A DNA stretch of 64,000 nt from Naegleria gruberi. Taxonomy: Eukaryota. A program made the translations under genes and the position numbers. Below the pieces are notes generated by a model that worked only from the letters and a program-made list of their open reading frames with translations, was not told the DNA's origin and ran no database searches. Location of the stretch: assembly GCA_000004985.1 (NCBI GenBank), contig GG738895.1, one strand, 5' to 3'. Below are positions 1,705 to 61,418 of the stretch, one piece after another; position 1 is the first letter of the stretch; every line of letters starts with the position of its first letter.

Positions 1705-2047
1705 TTTTTGTGGTTATATTATTTTTATTGATATAAATATTACAATCAATTGGGAAATGGAATATTCGATCATGTTTGAATAAAGAGGTATTGTATTTTA
1801 CATTAACATCGTAATAACCAAAAATTACTTAACCTGCTTGAAAGGATATGGATCTTTATTGGCAGGTCATTAGAATTCCAACAAAGTCTCAAATTGTAAA
1901 GCTTGTGGAAGAGATGATTTAAAGTAATTGAAATTTGTTTTGATGAAGACGGAATAACGAAATTTTTGCTTTAATGAACAAGAAATCAACAAGAAACGAA
2001 AAAGTTTGTCCTCTAGGTTGGGAATTCGGAAGTTTCGAATTAAAATA

Positions 2048-4021
2048 ATGGAATTACCAACCGAAAAAATGTCTCAACCAGATCTATCAACATTACCACC
2101 AAGACCTCACCATATCAAGATTCTAGGACCACCCTGTGATTGCAAACCAGTGAAACTAACCGTACTAAAACAAGTGGAAGAAAGTACAACAAATTTTGGA
2201 GCTTTCTACTACAAGTGCGCAACATGTCGATACTTTAAATGGGCAACAGATTCTGGTAATTCCATTGATTATGGTGACTTGTGGGCTCCATGTTGTCTTC
2301 TTCATCCCAACCGAAAGTGTAAATTATTGCAAATTGCAAGAAACAGCATTAATAGAGGAAAATTATTTTGGATTTGTGGAGTTTTGGATACTCCTTGTAC
2401 CCATTTTCAATTATTCGAAGGAAATATTGATGATTACAAAGAGTTTGTACCGAATTTTGATGAATCGTTATTGGAAAGTCAAGAACTAGAGAGTTCTCAA
2501 TCAAGTCAAATTGTAATGTCTCAGGCAAATTCAAGAAACATGATCGTTAGTCAATTACCAGAGGAAATCATGGCAGAAATTTTGAAATACTTGGACATGA
2601 TTCCTAATTGGGTGAAAATTATTGGAGTCTGTAAAGAATGGAAGAGAATGATTGATAATGTGATCGACCAGAAAGTGAATGATGGCTTAATTGAGCTTAA
2701 TCTTGGTTTTTTACATTCAAAAAGTCCATTTTGGTATTTTTGTGAAATTTTCAAAAGATTTTACAAAGTAAGAAAGATTACAATTTGTAACTTTGAATTG
2801 TATAGCGAATTAATGAGATTATTGGAATGGGTTGGTGTCGAAACTCTGGTATTATATAATTGCACAACCAAAATGTCCTGTAATCAGAAAGATCAAGTTG
2901 ATGACTCAGATAAGGTCTTAAATGAATGTTTTTCATTTAGGTCTAAATGCACTGAAATGTCATTCTTTCACATTCATGGAGAAACTCTATTATACAATTT
3001 CAATCATAATCATGTGGTACCTCATTTGAATGCTATTAATTCGGACATTTACTTTGAGTTTGTTAAAGAAATGGAAAGAAAAGTTGACATTACCCATAGA
3101 AGGCAGTTTCAAGAGTTGTCTCAGATTATTGCAATTAATTGCCCAGAGGATCTGAATTTTGTTTGGCTTAATGGTCCAGATGCTAGATCCTACCACAAAC
3201 ATGAGCAAGTAGACGCAAACTATGGAGATTTACTCGATTTACCTTTCGAACAAGAAGAATTGGAAAATATTGGAAAGTGTCATGTTAATGTGTATTCTCT
3301 GCCTACAGATATTGACGTTGGTTTTCTAAACCTATCTCTATTGGGACATCATAGAACACCAAAGATTTATGTGAAAAATGGAAAAAAGTACAGCTTTCCT
3401 ACCGTTGTTGATAATCAAGTAATTTCACATCCAGAAATTCAAAAGCAATTCATTCTAAACTGTGGAATTTCCAAGTATTTCAATGTTAACATGCTTGAGA
3501 TTGTCAACAAGGAACATTTCGATATTGCAGTAGAGAGTGGAATTGTACATTTTGAAAATGTTCACAAGCATGCATCCTTCAAAATATGTTTGGAAATATT
3601 GGCAAAGAATTTACTTGAAGATATACTTAAGGTTAATGGGAATGAAAGACTATTTTCCTTATGGAAAGGAACGTGTGTTTATAGACTTGTGTACTGGATA
3701 TACACTTTGCATTCGAAAGGTTTAGTCAAACCAATTCCTTCTTCAATTATTCAAATAGCCAAATCTATTGATTCAGAATGGAAGCAACGAAAACTTCTCT
3801 ACTCTCCTGTTTCAAAATTTTACGTAGATTATTCGAGAAATATTGGTGCTATTAGAGTTCCATTCTCATGGGAAGCTTTTGTTAATTATGGCGAATTGAG
3901 ATATCTTTTTGATGAATCATCTGAAAATTCAAATACAGAAATGGTGGAAAAGAATGCAAATAGAAGAACTTCCAATCAATTCGATTCTCTTAACCAACCA
4001 AAGAAGAGGAAACTAGAATAA
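2048..4021 (+). CDS. Protein with two GRF-type zinc fingers followed by an F-box-like motif; C-terminal two thirds unassigned
   Basis: First ATG of the 671-aa ORF is at 2048. CDCKPV...NFGAFYYKCATCRYFKW and CCLLHPNRKCKL...RGKLFWICG...CTHFQLF fit the zf-GRF pattern. LPEEIMAEILKYLD...CKEWKRMI fits an F-box. Confidence 0.6.
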   Translation: MELPTEKMSQPDLSTLPPRPHHIKILGPPCDCKPVKLTVLKQVEESTTNFGAFYYKCATCRYFKWATDSGNSIDYGDLWAPCCLLHPNRKCKLLQIARNSINRGKLFWICGVLDTPCTHFQLFEGNIDDYKEFVPNFDESLLESQELESSQSSQIVMSQANSRNMIVSQLPEEIMAEILKYLDMIPNWVKIIGVCKEWKRMIDNVIDQKVNDGLIELNLGFLHSKSPFWYFCEIFKRFYKVRKITICNFELYSELMRLLEWVGVETLVLYNCTTKMSCNQKDQVDDSDKVLNECFSFRSKCTEMSFFHIHGETLLYNFNHNHVVPHLNAINSDIYFEFVKEMERKVDITHRRQFQELSQIIAINCPEDLNFVWLNGPDARSYHKHEQVDANYGDLLDLPFEQEELENIGKCHVNVYSLPTDIDVGFLNLSLLGHHRTPKIYVKNGKKYSFPTVVDNQVISHPEIQKQFILNCGISKYFNVNMLEIVNKEHFDIAVESGIVHFENVHKHASFKICLEILAKNLLEDILKVNGNERLFSLWKGTCVYRLVYWIYTLHSKGLVKPIPSSIIQIAKSIDSEWKQRKLLYSPVSKFYVDYSRNIGAIRVPFSWEAFVNYGELRYLFDESSENSNTEMVEKNANRRTSNQFDSLNQPKKRKLE

Positions 4022-25445: not shown

Positions 25446-26779
25446 CTAATTGTTTTTTATAGAAGAGTAACACTCGGTCGTGTAATATAGTTGATCTATA
25501 GCCTCACTAAATCCTCTTTCTTCAAAGCCTTCCCCTACAATCCAGTGAACATAAGCTCTCTTGCTATACATCTTATCAAATTGTAGAGCAAGGTTATTAA
25601 GATAACTTGTTATTGAACTGGTATTGTTGGCAATGTGCATTACATTTTTAAAATGGAAAGAGGTTGGATGAATATTTACAGGTGCCTTTCTTGATATTTG
25701 ATATTGAGCTTGTTCATTGTTGTAAGTTTTGAGTACTTTCGAAAGAGAATCAGTATGATGATGTGAAAAATCTCCTCTCATTGATGTGTTCATTGCTATG
25801 GAAACTCCATCAGCCTTATTAACACTATTCAAAGAGGATTTTTTTGAAAAGAGATCCTTAATATTGAATTCAGTACTGGATGTATCTTGCAAGTTTACAA
25901 AACTATTAGATATTATATTAGTTTCGGCTGTTACACCCAAATAATCAATGACATTATTTAAACTTCCTTCATTTGAGAATCTAATCTGAGATGTTAATGT
26001 TGAAATACTTTGTGAAATTAAATGATTCATGTCCTTGAAATTAGGATTCTCAATTCCACACTCCACACAAGCATCCAATAGTGAACAATTATCAAATGCA
26101 AATATACATTTCATTCTATCATAAATATAATTCAAGCCAATAACTGAATTGTAAGTATCCAACATTGAAGTAGAATAAGTTGCACCTGGAAAAACAGTAA
26201 AGGTTGACTCGAAACATTATCTCAATATTCAACATGAAACTCTCACAAACCTACCATTGGTAATTTAAATTCATTTGCCAAACCCCAGACAATACGAGAG
26301 GTTGATCCAGATCCAGTTCCTCCACCAAGTGCTTGAGTAATCAATATACTCTCCACTGAATCACATCGTTCCAGCATTTTCCTAACTCTCTCCTCAATAT
26401 AATTAATTTCACAAGATGACATTGAAAAATAGCCTTTACCAAAGTTTGAGGCAGCATCTTCATTACCACATATTATATTTTCCTCCTTAAATTGAACATG
26501 CAATTGATGATCATTATGCAATGAACTTTGTAGTTGTTGGGGATCGGAATCAAAGAATAAACATCGAGGATGATAGACATTCTCCACTCTAATGGATTCA
26601 TCATATAAACATGATAGATTATTAATTTGTGGATCATTGTGGATATTGCTATTTTCTAAAAGTGAATTAGTGTTGTTGTTGTTGGATTGTAATCCGTGTT
26701 CATCGGCAAATAATTGCCAGAGATCAGTGCCGATCTGAGTTCCGCAATTACCAATATGCAAAAATATCAATTCTTTCAT
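25446..26779 (-). CDS. Highly divergent tubulin-family protein (alpha-like); 2 exons (26255..26779, 25446..26207)
   Basis: MKELIFLHIGNCGTQIGTDLWQLFADEHGL, GNEDAASNFGKGY, ALGGGTGSGSTS and YVHWIVGEGFEERGFSEA all align with tubulin landmarks. The 47-nt intron 26208..26254 (GTAGGT...CGAG) gives KLPM|STFTVFPGATYS, compared with tubulin IMNTFSVVPSPKVS. Confidence 0.8.
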
Positions 26780-26920
26780 TTTTTTTTTAAATATTAAATA
26801 TTTTAAATACAATAATTGTAATGTCCTTAATATTTAAAGATGTATTTTGTCAAGTGTTGAAGTTCTCTTGAACTTTGATCTTTAAATAGATTTTGAAAAA
26901 AACAATTTTCAAAAAAAAAA

Positions 26921-27832
26921 ATGATTCAATTCTTGGATCCAAATGTTGTGCAATTTGAAATTTTACCTCATCTCGATGATCGATCCGTTATTTCACTCCT
27001 ATCGACATGTAAAATTGTCAATCAGGTAATTTCTATTCCGGACTATATCGAAACAAAATTGAAAATAATGGATGAAGAAATTTTGAGTCAGAAATTCAAT
27101 GAGTTGGAACAAAGTCCAATCCAAGTGAATAGAATTAATGAAATATTTAGATTAGCATATTTGAATTTTAGAGAAGGAATGTTTCAAACTGAAAAGCAAT
27201 TGTTAGGAACAGTTAAAGTGGATGAGGCACAATGTTATGGAAAATTGAAATCTCAATATACTCTTTTGCAGAGATATGTTTTCAAGAATTCCGACAAATT
27301 ATCACCACACTGTAATAGGAGTGTTTTTTCAGGTTCAACAGGATTTTGGAATTCTCATAGTGTTGATTTTAAAATCTCAAAAGAGAATACTGTATATTAT
27401 TGGTCCATTGTCCTTACAGCATTTGATCGTAAGATATCAAATAGCTGGGCAATACTTGTAGGTTTTGCTGAAGAGGATGCTGCCTCATCATTATCTAAAA
27501 GCTGGATTCCATCTGGATATTGTGTCAAATCAAATGCAATACTTGAAAATAGTTATACATCATACACAGAGAGCCTTGTGAATACGGAAGGAGATGTCAT
27601 TGGAATTGAGTGCTATGTCCAAAACAAAACAGTCTATTTCAATGTTTACTCTCCTTCGAGGAACCATCAGACCTTTCAATTCAAATCTGTGAATAGTAAT
27701 ATAGTACCAATGGTATCTATGGTACACTCTCAATCACTCCAATTACTTTCATTACTTCCGTGGGATGGGCATGTGGAAAGCTTGAAATCCTTTGGAGAAT
27801 GTGCAACAAGGATTTGTACAGCAGAAGAATGA
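26921..27832 (+). CDS. F-box-like + SPRY-like domain protein (copy 1 of an inverted pair)
   Basis: The N-terminus reads VQFEILPHLDDRSVISLLSTCKIV (F-box-like). The C-terminus reads YYWSIVLTAF...WAILVGFAEE...GDVIGIECYVQNKTVYFNV, which fits the SPRY core pattern. It is about 89 percent identical in protein to 52502..53413 (-). Confidence 0.7.
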   Translation: MIQFLDPNVVQFEILPHLDDRSVISLLSTCKIVNQVISIPDYIETKLKIMDEEILSQKFNELEQSPIQVNRINEIFRLAYLNFREGMFQTEKQLLGTVKVDEAQCYGKLKSQYTLLQRYVFKNSDKLSPHCNRSVFSGSTGFWNSHSVDFKISKENTVYYWSIVLTAFDRKISNSWAILVGFAEEDAASSLSKSWIPSGYCVKSNAILENSYTSYTESLVNTEGDVIGIECYVQNKTVYFNVYSPSRNHQTFQFKSVNSNIVPMVSMVHSQSLQLLSLLPWDGHVESLKSFGECATRICTAEE

Positions 27833-27966
27833 TTTTATTGTTTGAAGAATTAAATTTCAAACAATAAATTACTATTCTATTATTGATGGATATCCAATGA
27901 TGATGTTCACTGAATATCAATGTTTTCCAGTATTGAAACCTTGATCTCTTTTTTACAACAAAAAAA

Positions 27967-52501: not shown

Positions 52502-53413
52502 TCATTCTTCTGCTGTACAAATCTTTGTTGCACATTCTCCAAAGGATTTCAGGCTTTCCACATGTCCATCCCACGGAAGTAATGAAAGTAATTGGAGTGA
52601 TTGAGAGTCTACCAGAGATACCATTGGTACTATATTACTATTAACATATTCGAATTGAAAAGTCTGATGGTTCCTCGAAGGGGAGTAAACATTGAAATAG
52701 ACTGTTTTGTTTTGGATATAACATTCAATTCCAATGACATCTCCTTCAGTATTCACACTGTGCTCTGAGTATAATTTATAACTACTTGTAACTGTTGCAT
52801 TCGATTTGATACAATAGCCATATAGAATCCATTTATCATATAGTGATGAGACAGCATCCTCTTCAGCAAAACCTACAATTATTGCCCAGCCATTTGATAT
52901 CTTCCAATCATAAGCTGTAAGTACTATGGACCAATAATATATAGTATTCTCTTTTGAGATTTTAAAATCAACACTATGAGAATTCCAAAATCCTGTTGAA
53001 CCTGAAAAAACACTCCTATTACAGTGTGGTGATAATTTGTTAGAATTCTTGAAAACATATCTCTTTAAAAGAGTATATTGAGATTTCAATTTTCCATAAC
53101 ATTGTGCCTCATCCACTTTAACTGTTCCTATCAATTGCTTTTCTGTTTGGAACATTCCTTCTCTAAAATTCAAATATGCTAATCTAAATATTTCATTAAT
53201 TCTATTCACTTGGATTGGACTTTGTTCCAACTCATTGAATTTCTGACTCAAAATTTCTTCATCCATTATTTTCAATTTTGTTTCGATATAGTCCGGAATA
53301 GAAATTACCTGATGGACAATTTTACATGTCGATAGGAGTGAAATAACGGATCGATCATCGAGATGAGGTAAAATTTCAAATTGCACAACATTCGGATCCA
53401 AGAATTGAATCAT
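52502..53413 (-). CDS. F-box-like + SPRY-like domain protein (copy 2 of an inverted pair)
   Basis: The A-tract+ATG at 53413 is the same start as copy 1. The protein is 303 aa with the same stop context (CTAEE*). See 26921..27832. Confidence 0.7.
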   Translation of the reverse strand: MIQFLDPNVVQFEILPHLDDRSVISLLSTCKIVHQVISIPDYIETKLKIMDEEILSQKFNELEQSPIQVNRINEIFRLAYLNFREGMFQTEKQLIGTVKVDEAQCYGKLKSQYTLLKRYVFKNSNKLSPHCNRSVFSGSTGFWNSHSVDFKISKENTIYYWSIVLTAYDWKISNGWAIIVGFAEEDAVSSLYDKWILYGYCIKSNATVTSSYKLYSEHSVNTEGDVIGIECYIQNKTVYFNVYSPSRNHQTFQFEYVNSNIVPMVSLVDSQSLQLLSLLPWDGHVESLKSFGECATKICTAEE

Positions 53414-53581
53414 TTTTTTTTTGAAAATTGTTTTTTCATAGATCAAAGTTCGTTTTTTGTTTTTTACAATGAACAGTTTTTTGTTATAATTTTTAAATAG
53501 TGAATGGAAAAATTACAACAATTTAAGGAGCTAGCCCAAATGTTTACAACATAACACAATAATTTGAAAGTTTTTAAAAAA

Positions 53582-55018
53582 ATGAAAAAAGTTAAAAAAG
53601 TTAAAAAAGTTAAAAAATCGAAAACTGTCAAGTCATTGGCAGTTGAAGATCAAGTGGTCATACAGGCTGGCCTGTTAGCACCGTTATCATCATCGGATGT
53701 TTTGTTTTATCAAATATTACCATGCTTTCCATTAAAATTGTTATTCGAAACAGCAAGATTAGTTTGTAAAGAATGGAATTTATTTATTGTGGGAAATCAT
53801 AATGATGCTGGTCATGTAAAAGAATATTTTACAGGTCGGTACTCTCTGATCATTCCCCGTGAAAAAGAAGAATCTCTGATGACTTGTATTCGTGCTGGAT
53901 ATTTCCGAAATATAATTCAAAAATTACATTTCAAAGCTTTTGATTCATTTTGTAATCCTTCTATTGTTAGAAACTCAGGAGTGATTGAAATGGTTCCACA
54001 AATTAGTTCAACTTTATTGGATGATTCTTTTCCAAATGTTGAGGAAATTATTATTGGAACTGTCAATTCAGATTCTTGTATTATAAGAGAGGGATTTTGT
54101 AAAAACAAACTGGAAAAGTTGAAATTGTTGAAGATGACCATGCAAAGGGACGTGTCAATTTCTGATATATTTTCATGTGATTTTATGCAAAATTTGACAT
54201 GCTTGAATTTGGATAACTGCTTTATTGATTATACAACAGTTTTACAAATTAGTGAATGTCCACTGAAGAACTTGGAGAAATTGTGCTTAGGATATAATTC
54301 AATAACTCAATTGGGAGCTCTTACATTGTCCAAAAGCAAACATCTTTCAAAATTAACATATTTAGATTTGACTTATAATGACATTGGTGATGAAGGGCTT
54401 AGACATCTTTGTGAAAGTGAAACACTGTGTAATATTTCAAATCTATTATTGGAATTTAATGTAATTTCAGAATTGGAGCCTCTTTTACAAAGCTCCAATA
54501 TGAAAAATCTAGCACATTTGAATTTGTATAGATGTAGTTTGAATTTAAAAAGCTTTATGTCATTGATATCTTGCCCTAATTTACCAAAACTTTCAGAAAT
54601 TAGTCTATACCATGCAGGTTTAACAGGAATGCAAGAATTAGAAACTTCTCACATCATAGTATCCAACTCAATCAATCGACTTGATCTATCCTCTTGCAGT
54701 TTAGATGATTTGGGATTTAGGTGTTTGTTAAATTCCCTCAAATACGACTCCATTACTGAACTAAATCTTAGGTACAATGAAATTGGAAATGAAGGATTGT
54801 TGTGCCTAGCTGAATGTCCCTTCCTGACCAATTTGAGGATACTCGACCTATCTGGAAATCCAATAGATGATGAAGGTGCCCTCTACCTGGCACAAAACGT
54901 TCAATTTCCAAATATTAAGGAATTAATTTTAGAGTTTACCAAAATGACCAAAAATGGCAGTGAAAAATTTTCAGAAATTATTTTACAACGATTCCCAAAT
55001 GTTAATTTAACTATTTAA
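53582..55018 (+). CDS. F-box-like + RNI-type leucine-rich repeat protein with N-terminal (KKV)n tract
   Basis: First ATG at 53582. MKKVKKVKKVKKSK comes from a 9-nt DNA repeat. The F-box-like segment is FYQILPCFPLKLLFETARLVCKEWNLFI. It is followed by ~28-aa LRRs (LTYLDLTYNDIGDEGLRHL..., LRILDLSGNPIDDEGALYL). Confidence 0.7.
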   Translation: MKKVKKVKKVKKSKTVKSLAVEDQVVIQAGLLAPLSSSDVLFYQILPCFPLKLLFETARLVCKEWNLFIVGNHNDAGHVKEYFTGRYSLIIPREKEESLMTCIRAGYFRNIIQKLHFKAFDSFCNPSIVRNSGVIEMVPQISSTLLDDSFPNVEEIIIGTVNSDSCIIREGFCKNKLEKLKLLKMTMQRDVSISDIFSCDFMQNLTCLNLDNCFIDYTTVLQISECPLKNLEKLCLGYNSITQLGALTLSKSKHLSKLTYLDLTYNDIGDEGLRHLCESETLCNISNLLLEFNVISELEPLLQSSNMKNLAHLNLYRCSLNLKSFMSLISCPNLPKLSEISLYHAGLTGMQELETSHIIVSNSINRLDLSSCSLDDLGFRCLLNSLKYDSITELNLRYNEIGNEGLLCLAECPFLTNLRILDLSGNPIDDEGALYLAQNVQFPNIKELILEFTKMTKNGSEKFSEIILQRFPNVNLTI

Positions 55019-57695: not shown

Positions 57696-59141
57696 ATGTT
57701 CTCGAGAACAAGGGTTATTTTCAAAATAATAATAATAATAATAATTAATGAATTGCTAATAGAGAATATTATATTTTCGGATGATGTTTGTTTTGAAATT
57801 ATTTCCATGATTGATGATTCGTGGTTTATTTTGAATAATTGTTCTTTAATTTCAAAACAATGGTTTAATGTGATCAAGGATCGTTCAAAACTTGTTATTC
57901 AATTTAAAAAAAAATTAACAGAAAAAAGAGTTGAATTATTAATGAAAAGTCAATTCATGAACAGTATTGTAAATGTTAAGTTTTCTTTTGGGTTGCTTAA
58001 CTCTTCAGATAAACTTAAATTCATAAGTGAAATGAAACATTTAACATCACTTGATATTGCTGACAATCAAATTGGTGATGAGGGATCTAAATTCATAAGT
58101 GGAATGAAACATTTAACATCACTTAATATAGATCGCAATCAAATTGGTGTAGAAGGAGCCAAACTCATAAGTGGAATGAAATCATTAATATCACTTAGTA
58201 TTGGTGATAATCAAATTGGTGTAGAAGGAGCCAAACTCATAAGTGGAATGAAACATTTAACATCACTTGATATAAATCGCAATCAAATTGGTGTAGAAGG
58301 AGCCAAATCAATAAGTAGAATGAAACAATTAACATCACTTAATATATATTACAATCAAATTGGTGCTGAGGGAGCCAAATCAATAAGTGGAATGAAACAA
58401 TTAACATCACTTGATATTGGTGGAAATCAAATTGGTGTAGAAGAATCCAAATACATAAGTGAAATGAAACAATTAACATCACTTGATATATATAACAATC
58501 AAATTGGTGTAGAAGGAGCCAAATCAATAAGTGGAATGAAACAATTAACATCACTTAATATTGGTTTCAATCGAATTGGTGTAGAAGGATCCAAACTCAT
58601 AAGTGAAATGAAACAATTAACATCACTTAATATTGGTTCCAATGAAATTGGTGTAGAAGGGTCCAAATTCATACCTGAAATGAAACATTTAACATCACTT
58701 AATATATATTACAATGAAATTGGTGATGAAGGATCCAAATACATAAGTGAAATGAAACAATTAACATCACTTGATATATATTACAATGAAATTGGTGTGG
58801 AAGGAGCCAAATACATAAGTGAAATGAAACAATTAACATCACTTGGTATTAGTGATAATCAAATTGGTGTAGAAGGAGCCAAATTCATAAGTGAAATGAA
58901 ATTATTAACATCACTTGATATTGCTGACAATCAAATTGGTGATGAGGGATCTAAATTCATAAGTGAAATGAAATCATTAACATCGCTTAATGTTAATTCC
59001 AATCAAATTGGTGATGAGGGAGCCAAACTTATAAGTGGAATGAAACAATTAACATCACTTAAAATATATTACAATCAAATTGGTGAAACTTTATTAATGT
59101 CTGTTATATCAATAACAGCTGAGACCAAATCTTTAGACTAA
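57696..59141 (+). CDS. F-box-like + 24-residue LRR protein (14 full units plus one partial); 5' end uncertain
   Basis: FSDDVCFEIISMIDDSWFILNNCSLISKQWFNVI is paralogous to the 55100 gene, and is followed by a regular LRR array. The ORF-internal ATG at 57696 would translate an (AAT)7 microsatellite as poly-Ile. An alternative is ATGATGGAG (57665) + GTAAAA donor + intron to 57764. Confidence 0.65.
   Translation: MFSRTRVIFKIIIIIIINELLIENIIFSDDVCFEIISMIDDSWFILNNCSLISKQWFNVIKDRSKLVIQFKKKLTEKRVELLMKSQFMNSIVNVKFSFGLLNSSDKLKFISEMKHLTSLDIADNQIGDEGSKFISGMKHLTSLNIDRNQIGVEGAKLISGMKSLISLSIGDNQIGVEGAKLISGMKHLTSLDINRNQIGVEGAKSISRMKQLTSLNIYYNQIGAEGAKSISGMKQLTSLDIGGNQIGVEESKYISEMKQLTSLDIYNNQIGVEGAKSISGMKQLTSLNIGFNRIGVEGSKLISEMKQLTSLNIGSNEIGVEGSKFIPEMKHLTSLNIYYNEIGDEGSKYISEMKQLTSLDIYYNEIGVEGAKYISEMKQLTSLGISDNQIGVEGAKFISEMKLLTSLDIADNQIGDEGSKFISEMKSLTSLNVNSNQIGDEGAKLISGMKQLTSLKIYYNQIGETLLMSVISITAETKSLD
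58010..59090 (+). repeat. 72-nt coding tandem repeat array (LRR units xLTSLxIxxNQIGxEGAKxISxMK)
   Basis: There are 14 full units plus 1 partial unit. Long stretches are shared verbatim between units, for example atgaaacaattaacatcacttgatat and caaattggtgtagaaggagccaaa. Confidence 0.9.
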
Positions 59142-59287
59142 CTAAGATTCTTTGTAGGGATTTGGGTTTGTTGATATTAGGCACCGTACATTGTGTAAAG
59201 CTTCATTTATTTAACTACCTCAATATCTTAAAGTGTGGAGTATTGTGATTGAAACGTTGAAAGATGAGTTTACATAATTCAAACAAT

Positions 59288-60320: not shown

Positions 60321-61418
60321 TTATAGCATGGTTTTTAGAGTGGCAACAGCATAGAGGAATGGAAAGAGAAGGTCATCATCAGAGCACTCTTCTTTGGAGC
60401 TTAATTCAAAATATTGAACTTTGGTTGTGTGAATTGTTTTTTGTTGAGGCTCTGGCTCGACCATTTTTAGAAAATTGTAAATTTCAAGTCTTGTTACTTG
60501 ATGATCGAGATCTGATTTCAATCCGAGTAAGAGGAAACATCTATCATTGATATTGTAATCTGAAATATCTTTGACTGTCATTTCGTGATAAATTTCAATC
60601 ATTTCCTCAAATGATTTATGACTATTCAAATCAAAACAATACACAAAAACATTAGCTCTCGAATAAACAGATTTGAATAGCGATAGATATGTTTGATTTC
60701 CACATGTATCCCAAATCTTGAATGCAAATTCCGTCCCACTTCCATAAAGGTAATGCTTGTCAATTACTGGGAAAGTTATTGAGGGTGTATAATTTTCCGA
60801 AAATGGTAATTGATTAAAAGCTCTATCAATCAAAGTGGATTTACCACACCCTGATGACCCAACAAATATGTATTGGGCACATTGAGGCAATTCAACATCC
60901 TCATCTATTACAAATCTCTTCAGCAAGACATTTTTAACATTTTCATAACTTTCCATATCAGAAAACATGTACAACATTGGACTTTTTCTCCTCAAATCCT
61001 TCCACAGAACTTCAAATCTGGTCCAATACATTAAAAATCTCTTTGAAACTCGTTGCATTCTCCCTATACTTTCCATATCCAAAAATTGTAAAATGTGTAA
61101 AATTATTTCATGAGGAAAATTCGTCAACCAACCATCCTTCTCCTCACCCTGATTGAAATACTCATCATTGCCTCCATATCCTCTCCTAATTCCATTAAAA
61201 ATTCCTATCGGAAGCAATTCTACATCCGAAACAATAGTAGAAAGAATAGATTTCCTCTTGAATCCTCTTGGTAATTCCAACACGGGAAAATGTAGGGATT
61301 TTCCTGTAGAATAAAGTAAATTTTCAGATTGTTCACGGGAGGGGATTTTATTTTCATCTCTTGCTTGGTGATTCAGAGATGATGATGAGGGCGTCTCTGT
61401 TGATGTTTGTTGTCCCAT
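60321..61418 (-). CDS. MG-start + F-box + Rab-like small GTPase fusion protein (copy 2)
   Basis: MGQQTS fits the myristoylation consensus. The F-box reads FPHEIILHILQFLDMESIGRMQRVSKRFLMYW. The GTPase motifs are G1 GSSGCGKS, G3 WDTCGNQTY, G4 GLKSDL and G5 ELSSKE. There is no C-terminal Cys. Confidence 0.75.
   Translation of the reverse strand: MGQQTSTETPSSSSLNHQARDENKIPSREQSENLLYSTGKSLHFPVLELPRGFKRKSILSTIVSDVELLPIGIFNGIRRGYGGNDEYFNQGEEKDGWLTNFPHEIILHILQFLDMESIGRMQRVSKRFLMYWTRFEVLWKDLRRKSPMLYMFSDMESYENVKNVLLKRFVIDEDVELPQCAQYIFVGSSGCGKSTLIDRAFNQLPFSENYTPSITFPVIDKHYLYGSGTEFAFKIWDTCGNQTYLSLFKSVYSRANVFVYCFDLNSHKSFEEMIEIYHEMTVKDISDYNINDRCFLLLGLKSDLDHQVTRLEIYNFLKMVEPEPQQKTIHTTKVQYFELSSKEECSDDDLLFPFLYAVATLKTML

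Follow-up and report, generated by a model that had tools for sequence, protein, structure and literature searches.

Two intronless genes in a 64,000-nucleotide stretch of Naegleria gruberi nuclear DNA (contig GG738895.1, G+C content 33.7%; hereafter, the window, with positions counted from its first nucleotide) encode paralogous proteins that combine an F-box-like N-terminus with a C-terminal SPRY domain, and about half of the differences between them are gathered in one short stretch of the latter. Copy 1 is an open reading frame (ORF) of 303 codons at positions 26921..27832 of the plus strand, and copy 2, its inverted paralog, comprises 303 codons from the homologous ATG at positions 52502..53413 of the minus strand. 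The divergent stretch (hereafter, the patch) covers residues 187–222, that is, positions 27479..27586 (plus strand) in copy 1 and 52748..52855 (minus strand) in copy 2. The excess of change in the patch is specifically nonsynonymous, it is distributed asymmetrically between the copies, and much of it falls on segments that likely line the canonical SPRY pocket. We suggest that, following the duplication, the ligand-facing part of the SPRY domain came under a different selective regime, with a shift in binding specificity as the most likely outcome, a reading to which we give about an even chance.

Divergence of the two gene copies

The copies lie 24.7 kb apart on one contig of 333,733 bp. The product of copy 1 is 100% identical to the NCBI protein NAEGRDRAFT_81123, labelled “F-box domain-containing protein” in UniRef, and copy 2 corresponds to a second N. 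gruberi “predicted protein.” The two proteins align without gaps and coincide at 272 out of 303 residues (90%), leaving 31 differences. At the DNA level, the copies form an inverted pair of 936 nt with 93% identity, which is the sole long repeat within the window, and no third copy is present in these 64 kb. The two genes are recent paralogs, and their family is specific to Heterolobosea.

The original prediction, made from the letters of the window, had quoted the peptides of the patch, AASSLSKSWIPSGYCVKSNAILENSYTSYTESLVNT for copy 1 and AVSSLYDKWILYGYCIKSNATVTSSYKLYSEHSVNT for copy 2, and both coincide exactly with the translations at the above positions; its count of about 16 changes in 35 positions, roughly half of the total, is also accurate, as 16 out of 31 differences (52%) occur at residues 188–219. 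When 31 differences were placed randomly over 303 sites in 200,000 trials, the fullest 35-residue segment held 14 of them (7.5 on average), and the 16 observed correspond to P < 5e-6 for the whole protein and, if residues 158–303 alone are considered, P = 3.6e-4. The nucleotide alignment of the patch contains 25 substitutions per 108 nt, with five codons differing at two positions each, and has no gaps, which rules out an origin of the patch by a frameshift and its subsequent restoration. Two pairs of codons may be read in another way: codons 193–194 (27497-27502 and 52832-52837, AAA AGC vs. GAT AAA) could have arisen via a one-codon shift, that is, a paired insertion and deletion, instead of four substitutions, and codons 218–219 (27572-27577 and 52757-52762, AGC CTT vs. 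CAC AGT) are also readable as a one-codon shift; given the outgroup codons, these paired-indel readings are not needed. The patch is ordinary paralog divergence, real and far above chance.

The Nei–Gojobori method yielded 0.304 nonsynonymous (dN) and 0.188 synonymous (dS) substitutions per site in the patch, with their ratio (omega) being 1.6, and the codon likelihood model (F3x4, kappa 2.0) yielded dN 0.337, dS 0.211, and omega 1.59. The respective values for the rest of the SPRY domain were 0.056, 0.188, and 0.30 by Nei–Gojobori (codons 158–275) and 0.047, 0.187, and 0.25 by likelihood (codons 158–303), and the likelihood estimates for the rest of the gene were dN 0.025, dS 0.108, and omega 0.23. 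Hence, dN in the patch is six to seven times that of the rest of the domain, with equal dS; in the SPRY codons immediately flanking the patch, dS is 0.19–0.22 upstream and 0.15 downstream. The patch carries 21 nonsynonymous differences, compared to approximately 14 expected at omega = 1, and equality of omega is rejected by the likelihood-ratio test both for the patch vs. the rest of the SPRY domain (nominal p = 0.010) and for the patch vs. the rest of the gene (nominal p = 0.0035). Silent divergence equally raised in the patch had been named in advance as the observation that would speak against diversification. It is not raised (0.19–0.21 vs. 0.19 in the rest of the domain), and since dN is higher (0.30–0.34), the excess is specifically nonsynonymous and the patch is not an artefact of a gene-conversion boundary.

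In order to polarize the differences, we used as the outgroup the only close relative, P0003, with 59% identity, from the Logan assembly of SRR25266747. Fifteen amino acid differences are derived in copy 2, six in copy 1, and ten are ambiguous; inside the patch, the respective numbers are nine, three, and four, so that nine out of 12 polarized patch changes belong to copy 2. In the patch, the identity to the outgroup amounts to 64% for copy 1 and 47% for copy 2; elsewhere in the protein, the copies are equally distant from it. As the value of 64% is comparable to 59–65% elsewhere in the protein, the patch is not intrinsically hypervariable. Five out of seven polarized nonsynonymous nucleotide changes of copy 1 and ten out of 16 of copy 2 fall within the patch. 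Outside it, nonsynonymous and synonymous changes in copy 2 relate as 6:7, and thus copy 2 is still constrained rather than decaying.

The derived changes in copy 2 are also more radical, with the mean BLOSUM62 score of −0.53 vs. +1.33 in copy 1 (Mann–Whitney p = 0.02). Only copy 2 has replaced Ser214 (retained in 12 out of 14 relatives), Thr213, Asn210, and Glu209, the changes including S214L and T213K, and it has gained aromatic residues at four positions, Tyr192 and Tyr198 in the patch, Tyr256, and Trp170. Substitutions in copy 2 follow the ordinary GC>AT mutational bias and include three TCT>TAT changes; this bias could be the sole cause of the Ser-to-Tyr changes. Judging from the single outgroup sequence, copy 2 is the more derived copy, and the patch of copy 1 is ancestral-like.

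Predicted fold and the position of the patch in the SPRY domain

The structural model built from the 16-sequence alignment of the family has the mean predicted local distance difference test score (pLDDT) of 81.6 and the predicted template modeling score (pTM) of 0.82; with a three-sequence alignment, the pLDDT was as low as 36.7. According to Foldseek, the modeled domain is most similar to the SPRY domain of Ash2L (E-value 2e-8), followed by MID1, RanBPM, HERC1, GUSTAVUS, and SPSB2. Thus, the proposed SPRY domain is seen in the predicted model as a bent β-sandwich of the SPRY type, spanning residues ~134–280 (27320..27760, plus strand, in copy 1, and 52574..53014, minus strand, in copy 2, aligned without gaps). 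No SPRY relatives were found in PDB by sequence or profile search, and the domain, as modeled, is a divergent SPRY recognizable mainly by its fold.

The modeled strands comprise residues 159–167, 178–184, 198–201, 206–209, and 226–234 and onwards. The patch then covers a short helical loop (185–197), a strand (198–201), a turn (202–205), another strand (206–209), and a loop (210–225), and 11–12 out of its 16 variable sites are placed outside the strands. Polar, charged, or aromatic residues take part in 13 of these 16 replacements, which would be unexpected in a buried core.

In order to relate the patch to known binding surfaces, residues were matched by conserved SPRY motif anchors rather than by coordinate superposition, with the sequences of SPSB2 and TRIM21 checked against PDB. 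The anchors are ILVGF, corresponding to VVGVA of SPSB2 and LGVC of TRIM21; SGYC, corresponding to SWGW and GFWTIW, respectively; and VPMVSMVHSQ, corresponding to YPAVSAVWGQ and PFFSPGF. According to mutational data, Tyr120, residues 123–128, and Val206 of SPSB2 are needed for binding (PMC2923778). Tyr120 and residues 123–128 are enclosed by the first two anchors, as are residues 184–197 of the Naegleria proteins, and Val206–Gly208 follow the third anchor. The pocket of TRIM21 is lined by Asp355, Leu370/Leu371, Trp381/Trp383, and Phe450/Asp452 (PMC4670481), which by position correspond to segments 175–177, 184–197, 198–206, and 269–272. These segments hold 15 out of 31 differences between the copies, and with the remainder of the patch included, the number rises to 21. 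More generally, TRIM PRYSPRY domains bind their ligands via the concave sheet together with VL1, VL3-β6-VL4, and VL6 (PMC10643145).

Two further loops that likely belong to the same surface also differ between the copies. The loop preceding the hhGh strand (residues 168–177, positions 27422..27451, plus strand) carries F168Y, R170W, and S175G and, by motif anchoring, appears to correspond to loop C of the SPSB proteins (Thr102) and to the Asp355 region of TRIM21. The loop following the PMVSMV strand (residues 267–274, positions 27719..27742, plus strand) carries M267L and H269D and is the likely counterpart of SPSB loop E (Val206/Trp207/Gly208) and of Phe450/Asp452 in TRIM21. Taking all this into account, we infer that residues 184–206 correspond to the pocket-lining elements of SPSB2 and TRIM21.

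The protein family, the duplication, and the neighboring genes

When 1.84 billion representative sequences were searched exhaustively with a HMMER profile (E ≤ 1e-3), 17 relatives were retrieved, and the ten that were looked up by name are Naegleria and Willaertia proteins and metagenome sequences, the named members coming only from N. gruberi, N. fowleri, N. lovaniensis, and Willaertia magna. A word-index protein search added a single sequence (P0012), a metagenome scan revealed no further close relatives, and among the relatives retrieved, the closest further ones from N. gruberi show approximately 26% identity. Members of the family share the F-box-like N-terminus, a helical linker (residues 66–118), the SPRY domain, and a C-terminal helix, and end with LPWDGxVExLK. 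Among 16 members, Pfam matches at E ≤ 0.1 were obtained for F-box-like (11 members, best E-value 5e-7), F-box (eight members), and SPRY (six members, best E-value 3.3e-5), and a comparison of the family profile with solved F-box domains yielded weak matches to FBXW proteins and Legionella AnkB (E-values 0.02–0.3). The F-box-like region of copy 1 (residues ~5–56, positions 26933..27088, plus strand) is modeled as helices 7–17, 20–29, 31–36, and 39–56, and that of copy 2 (53246..53401, minus strand) differs from it by N34H only. No publication dealing with Naegleria F-box/SPRY proteins was found.

In the family alignment, residues 186–197 are gappy and variable, and Gly199, Tyr200, Tyr215, Asn221, and Asp225 are near-invariant and retained by both copies. 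A pair of W. magna proteins encoded on one contig (P0013 and P0027, accessions KAL9658408 and KAL9658400) coincides completely over the first 174 residues, and its 16 differences are confined to the SPRY domain, with half of them, including a three-residue indel in the loop, occurring in the stretch equivalent to the patch; as far as the sequences tell, it is an independent replicate of the pattern described here. Another N. gruberi pair, P0007 and P0024, shows the N-terminal identity without concentration of differences in the patch-equivalent stretch.

The similarity of the copies is strongest at the 5′ end. The near-identity tract comprises 52 nt upstream and codons 1–87 in copy 1 (26870..27181, plus strand; 2 nt differences per 261 coding bases) and its counterpart in copy 2 (53153..53451, minus strand). 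Codons 1–87 contain one synonymous difference per approximately 51 sites vs. 18 per approximately 135 sites downstream (Fisher p = 0.027), that is, dS of 0.02 vs. 0.14, with 0.15–0.21 in the SPRY part; the Nei–Gojobori estimates for these codons are dN 0.005, dS 0.02, and omega 0.24. The original prediction described the F-box end as almost invariant, and indeed there is a single amino acid difference in the first 94 residues, but the silent sites are near-invariant as well, which weakens the contrast with the SPRY domain. The identity to the outgroup is 59% in the N-terminal half and 61–65% in the SPRY domain, and hence the long-term constraint on the former is not stronger. As suggested by the silent sites, the 5′ third has most likely been homogenized by recent gene conversion rather than preserved by stronger purifying selection.

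In the local alignment, homology extends upstream to position −52 in copy 1 and −41 in copy 2, with an 11-nt indel, and ends one base past the stop codon, the 936-nt repeat spanning 26898-27833 vs. 52501-53436. Beyond the limits of homology, the flanks of the copies are no more similar than shuffled sequence, although the silent divergence is only 0.1–0.2, and thus the repeated unit is gene-sized. This may reflect either copying of the gene alone or old duplicates kept alike within the gene. The outgroup contig (L001) has no neighbor genes in common with either locus, and therefore gene order does not point to either copy as the parental one.

Copy 2 is followed, 115 nt downstream, by a tRNA-Asn(GTT) gene (52314-52386, plus strand); there are six tRNA genes across the window. 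A divergent tubulin gene (25446-26812, minus strand) consists of two ORFs split by a GT..AG intron of approximately 65 nt near 26166-26242, and its N-terminal ORF alone matches Pfam Tubulin (2e-31). At least five genes of the F-box type occur in the window. An ORF at 60321-61418 (minus strand) has an unusual architecture, with both an F-box (Pfam E-value 1e-6) and a small GTPase domain of the Ras/Roc type (1e-22), another one (2006-4021, plus strand) encodes a GRF zinc finger with an F-box after it, and the product of the ORF at 53564-55018 has Pfam matches to leucine-rich repeats and, by eye, is F-box-like. At least 14 tandem 72-nt units, each encoding a 24-residue leucine-rich repeat, occupy 57945-59180 (plus strand) in the ORF 57696-59141; the DNA of the inner twelve units shows 79–86% identity to the reference unit, and hence the array has been recently expanded or homogenized. 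Finally, a 599-aa ORF (49782-51581, minus strand) has no Pfam match; its product features a low-complexity run rich in Gly and Ser, and its C-terminus is rich in Lys, Arg, and Glu.

Possible explanations and comparison with known receptors

Most likely, both proteins would act as substrate receptors of SCF (Skp1-Cullin-F-box) ubiquitin ligases, with the N-terminal F-box docking Skp1 and the C-terminal SPRY sandwich holding the substrate. The replacements are gathered in one stretch of this sandwich, formed, according to the model, by a two-strand hairpin together with the loop that connects it to the preceding hhGh strand and the loop that comes after it, with smaller clusters in two other loops predicted to line the canonical pocket. 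Given the nonsynonymous excess in the patch and the uniform silent divergence across the SPRY domain, the selective regime has changed locally; purifying selection would have been lifted or reversed on this surface and kept elsewhere. The asymmetry fits the same scheme, copy 1 apparently keeping the ancestral-like surface and copy 2 swapping family-conserved residues and gaining aromatic and charged side chains, so that copy 2 would bind a different or modified ligand on the same ligase scaffold.

Several points weigh against this reading. Although the patch omega (1.59–1.61) exceeds one, it does so non-significantly (p = 0.42, likelihood ratio; p = 0.58, Fisher test); moreover, the boundaries of the patch were picked after inspection of the data, which makes the p-values of the omega contrasts optimistic, and the comparison is based on two close sequences and one outgroup, the pair being too small a set for site models. 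The placement on the SPRY surface rests on motif anchors, as alignment to single templates by hhalign had the probability of approximately 1%, reproducing the SPSB2 anchors at low confidence and misregistering TRIM21. Residues 210–221 correspond to the β10–β11 loop of the SPSB proteins, described as distant from the peptide site (PMC2923778). The assignment of the variable loops to the ligand-binding face is thus retained for the first two-thirds of the patch, which by motif anchors are in pocket-lining segments, and is doubtful for its last third. Neither copy alone passes the Pfam thresholds for F-box or SPRY: no F-box match at E ≤ 0.1 was obtained for either of them, and the scores for SPRY (PF00622) were 21.2 bits for copy 1 and 16.6 bits for copy 2 at the gathering cut-off of 26.3. 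The preference of the original prediction for diversification of specificity over neutral drift is therefore upheld only in part: the excess is nonsynonymous on a uniform silent background, but omega of 1.6 is not significantly above one. A shift in binding specificity is suggested by this pattern, which may or may not reflect positive selection.

Another explanation, which we consider a serious possibility without favoring it, is local relaxation of constraint with no new function. In this case, neutral drift after the duplication would have affected the binding surface in one redundant copy, and to some extent in both, with selection still acting on the F-box and on the core that determines the fold, and copy 2 may be losing ligand binding. 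Indeed, the patch omega is statistically indistinguishable from one, the loss of family-conserved residues by copy 2, including Ser214, would be expected if the ancestral binding mode were lost, and the substitutions of copy 2 show the ordinary mutational bias noted above, with its three TCT>TAT changes. On the other hand, the point estimate of omega is above one (21 nonsynonymous differences vs. approximately 14 expected), both copies concentrate their polarized nonsynonymous changes in the patch (5/7 and 10/16), the four Tyr and Trp residues gained in loops are typical of binding surfaces, and the rest of copy 2, including the adjacent SPRY strands, has omega of approximately 0.2, which would be odd for a receptor binding nothing.

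Recombination could produce a divergent segment in two ways. The copies might be old and kept similar by gene conversion, with the patch being a segment that escaped and shows their true age; the likely conversion at the 5′ end (dS 0.02 vs. 0.14, p = 0.027) and the restriction of homology to the interval from −52 to one base past the stop, with unrelated flanks, fit such a history. However, in a tract that escaped conversion, the greater age would be seen at silent sites as well, while the patch dS equals that of the flanking SPRY codons and the six-fold excess in dN would require dS above one, making this mosaic clearly improbable. Still less probable, in our opinion, is the import of the copy 2 patch by short conversion from a third, more divergent member of the family: the five doubly changed codons could originate from a foreign tract, but the window contains no other copy, the closest further N. 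gruberi relatives among those retrieved, at approximately 26% identity, have diverged too far for recombination, the family-consensus residues expected from such a donor are missing in copy 2, and dS in the patch is not raised. As for an assembly or sequencing artefact (misplaced alleles or errors), nothing specific points to it beyond the draft status of the N. gruberi assembly, and its probability is almost negligible, since neither ORF is disrupted, the alignment has no gaps and shows only substitutions, and the copies have distinct flanks on one scaffold and are represented by two separate NCBI proteins.

The predicted two-domain architecture of the Naegleria pair is the same as in FBXO45/FSN-1, the animal F-box/SPRY domain-containing protein 1. 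In FBXO45, the N-terminal F-box is followed by a C-terminal SPRY domain of the SPSB type, which provides a cullin-type ubiquitin ligase with its substrate-binding module. We detected no sequence relationship between the families, all named relatives among the 17 profile matches being from Heterolobosea, and, unlike FBXO45, the Naegleria family features the long helical linker (66–118), the C-terminal helix, and the LPWDGxVExLK end. Hence, this architecture was probably assembled independently of FBXO45.

In the SPSB1–4/GUSTAVUS proteins, which are receptors of Cullin-5 ligases comprising SPRY and a SOCS box, the SPRY sandwich presents a peptide site formed by loops A–E. Residues between the hhGh and SWGW strands and those after the PAVS strand (Val206–Gly208) are essential for binding, and the affinity of SPSB paralogs differs due to changes in β7 and loop D (PMC2923778), which is where the first part of the Naegleria patch is located. 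The differences from the Naegleria pair are in the adaptor, a C-terminal SOCS box instead of the N-terminal F-box, and in the sequence, which is only 10–15% identical.

A looser resemblance is to the B30.2 domains of TRIM5α and fish finTRIM, where duplicated genes have positively selected variable loops. We take the central strands flanked by the v2 and v3 regions of TRIM5α to be those flanked by the two halves of the patch, v3 presumably corresponding to residues 210–221. The main hot spot of TRIM proteins is v1 in the PRY part, and there is no variability there in the Naegleria pair. Positive selection in TRIM5α and finTRIM has been established from many sequences, in contrast to the non-significant omega > 1 obtained here; besides, these proteins are RING/B-box/coiled-coil ligases with a known antiviral role. 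It is conceivable, although rather unlikely, that recurrent diversifying selection acts on the binding surface of the whole family, to which this pair and the similar Willaertia pair belong; the family would then be an amoebal analogue of TRIM5α or finTRIM tracking fast-evolving targets, such as giant-virus proteins or those of intracellular bacteria, and gene conversion would maintain the uniformity of its F-box end.

The observed pattern is what one would expect of receptor genes after duplication and poses no challenge to how they are currently understood; gene conversion and local divergence would act here on different parts of one 0.9-kb gene. If the interpretation in terms of changed binding specificity is true, the pair is a compact natural experiment, in which the ligase-docking end is identical and approximately 20 residues around the SPRY pocket differ, and the patch would mark the specificity-determining surface of an uncharacterized F-box/SPRY family found only in Heterolobosea.

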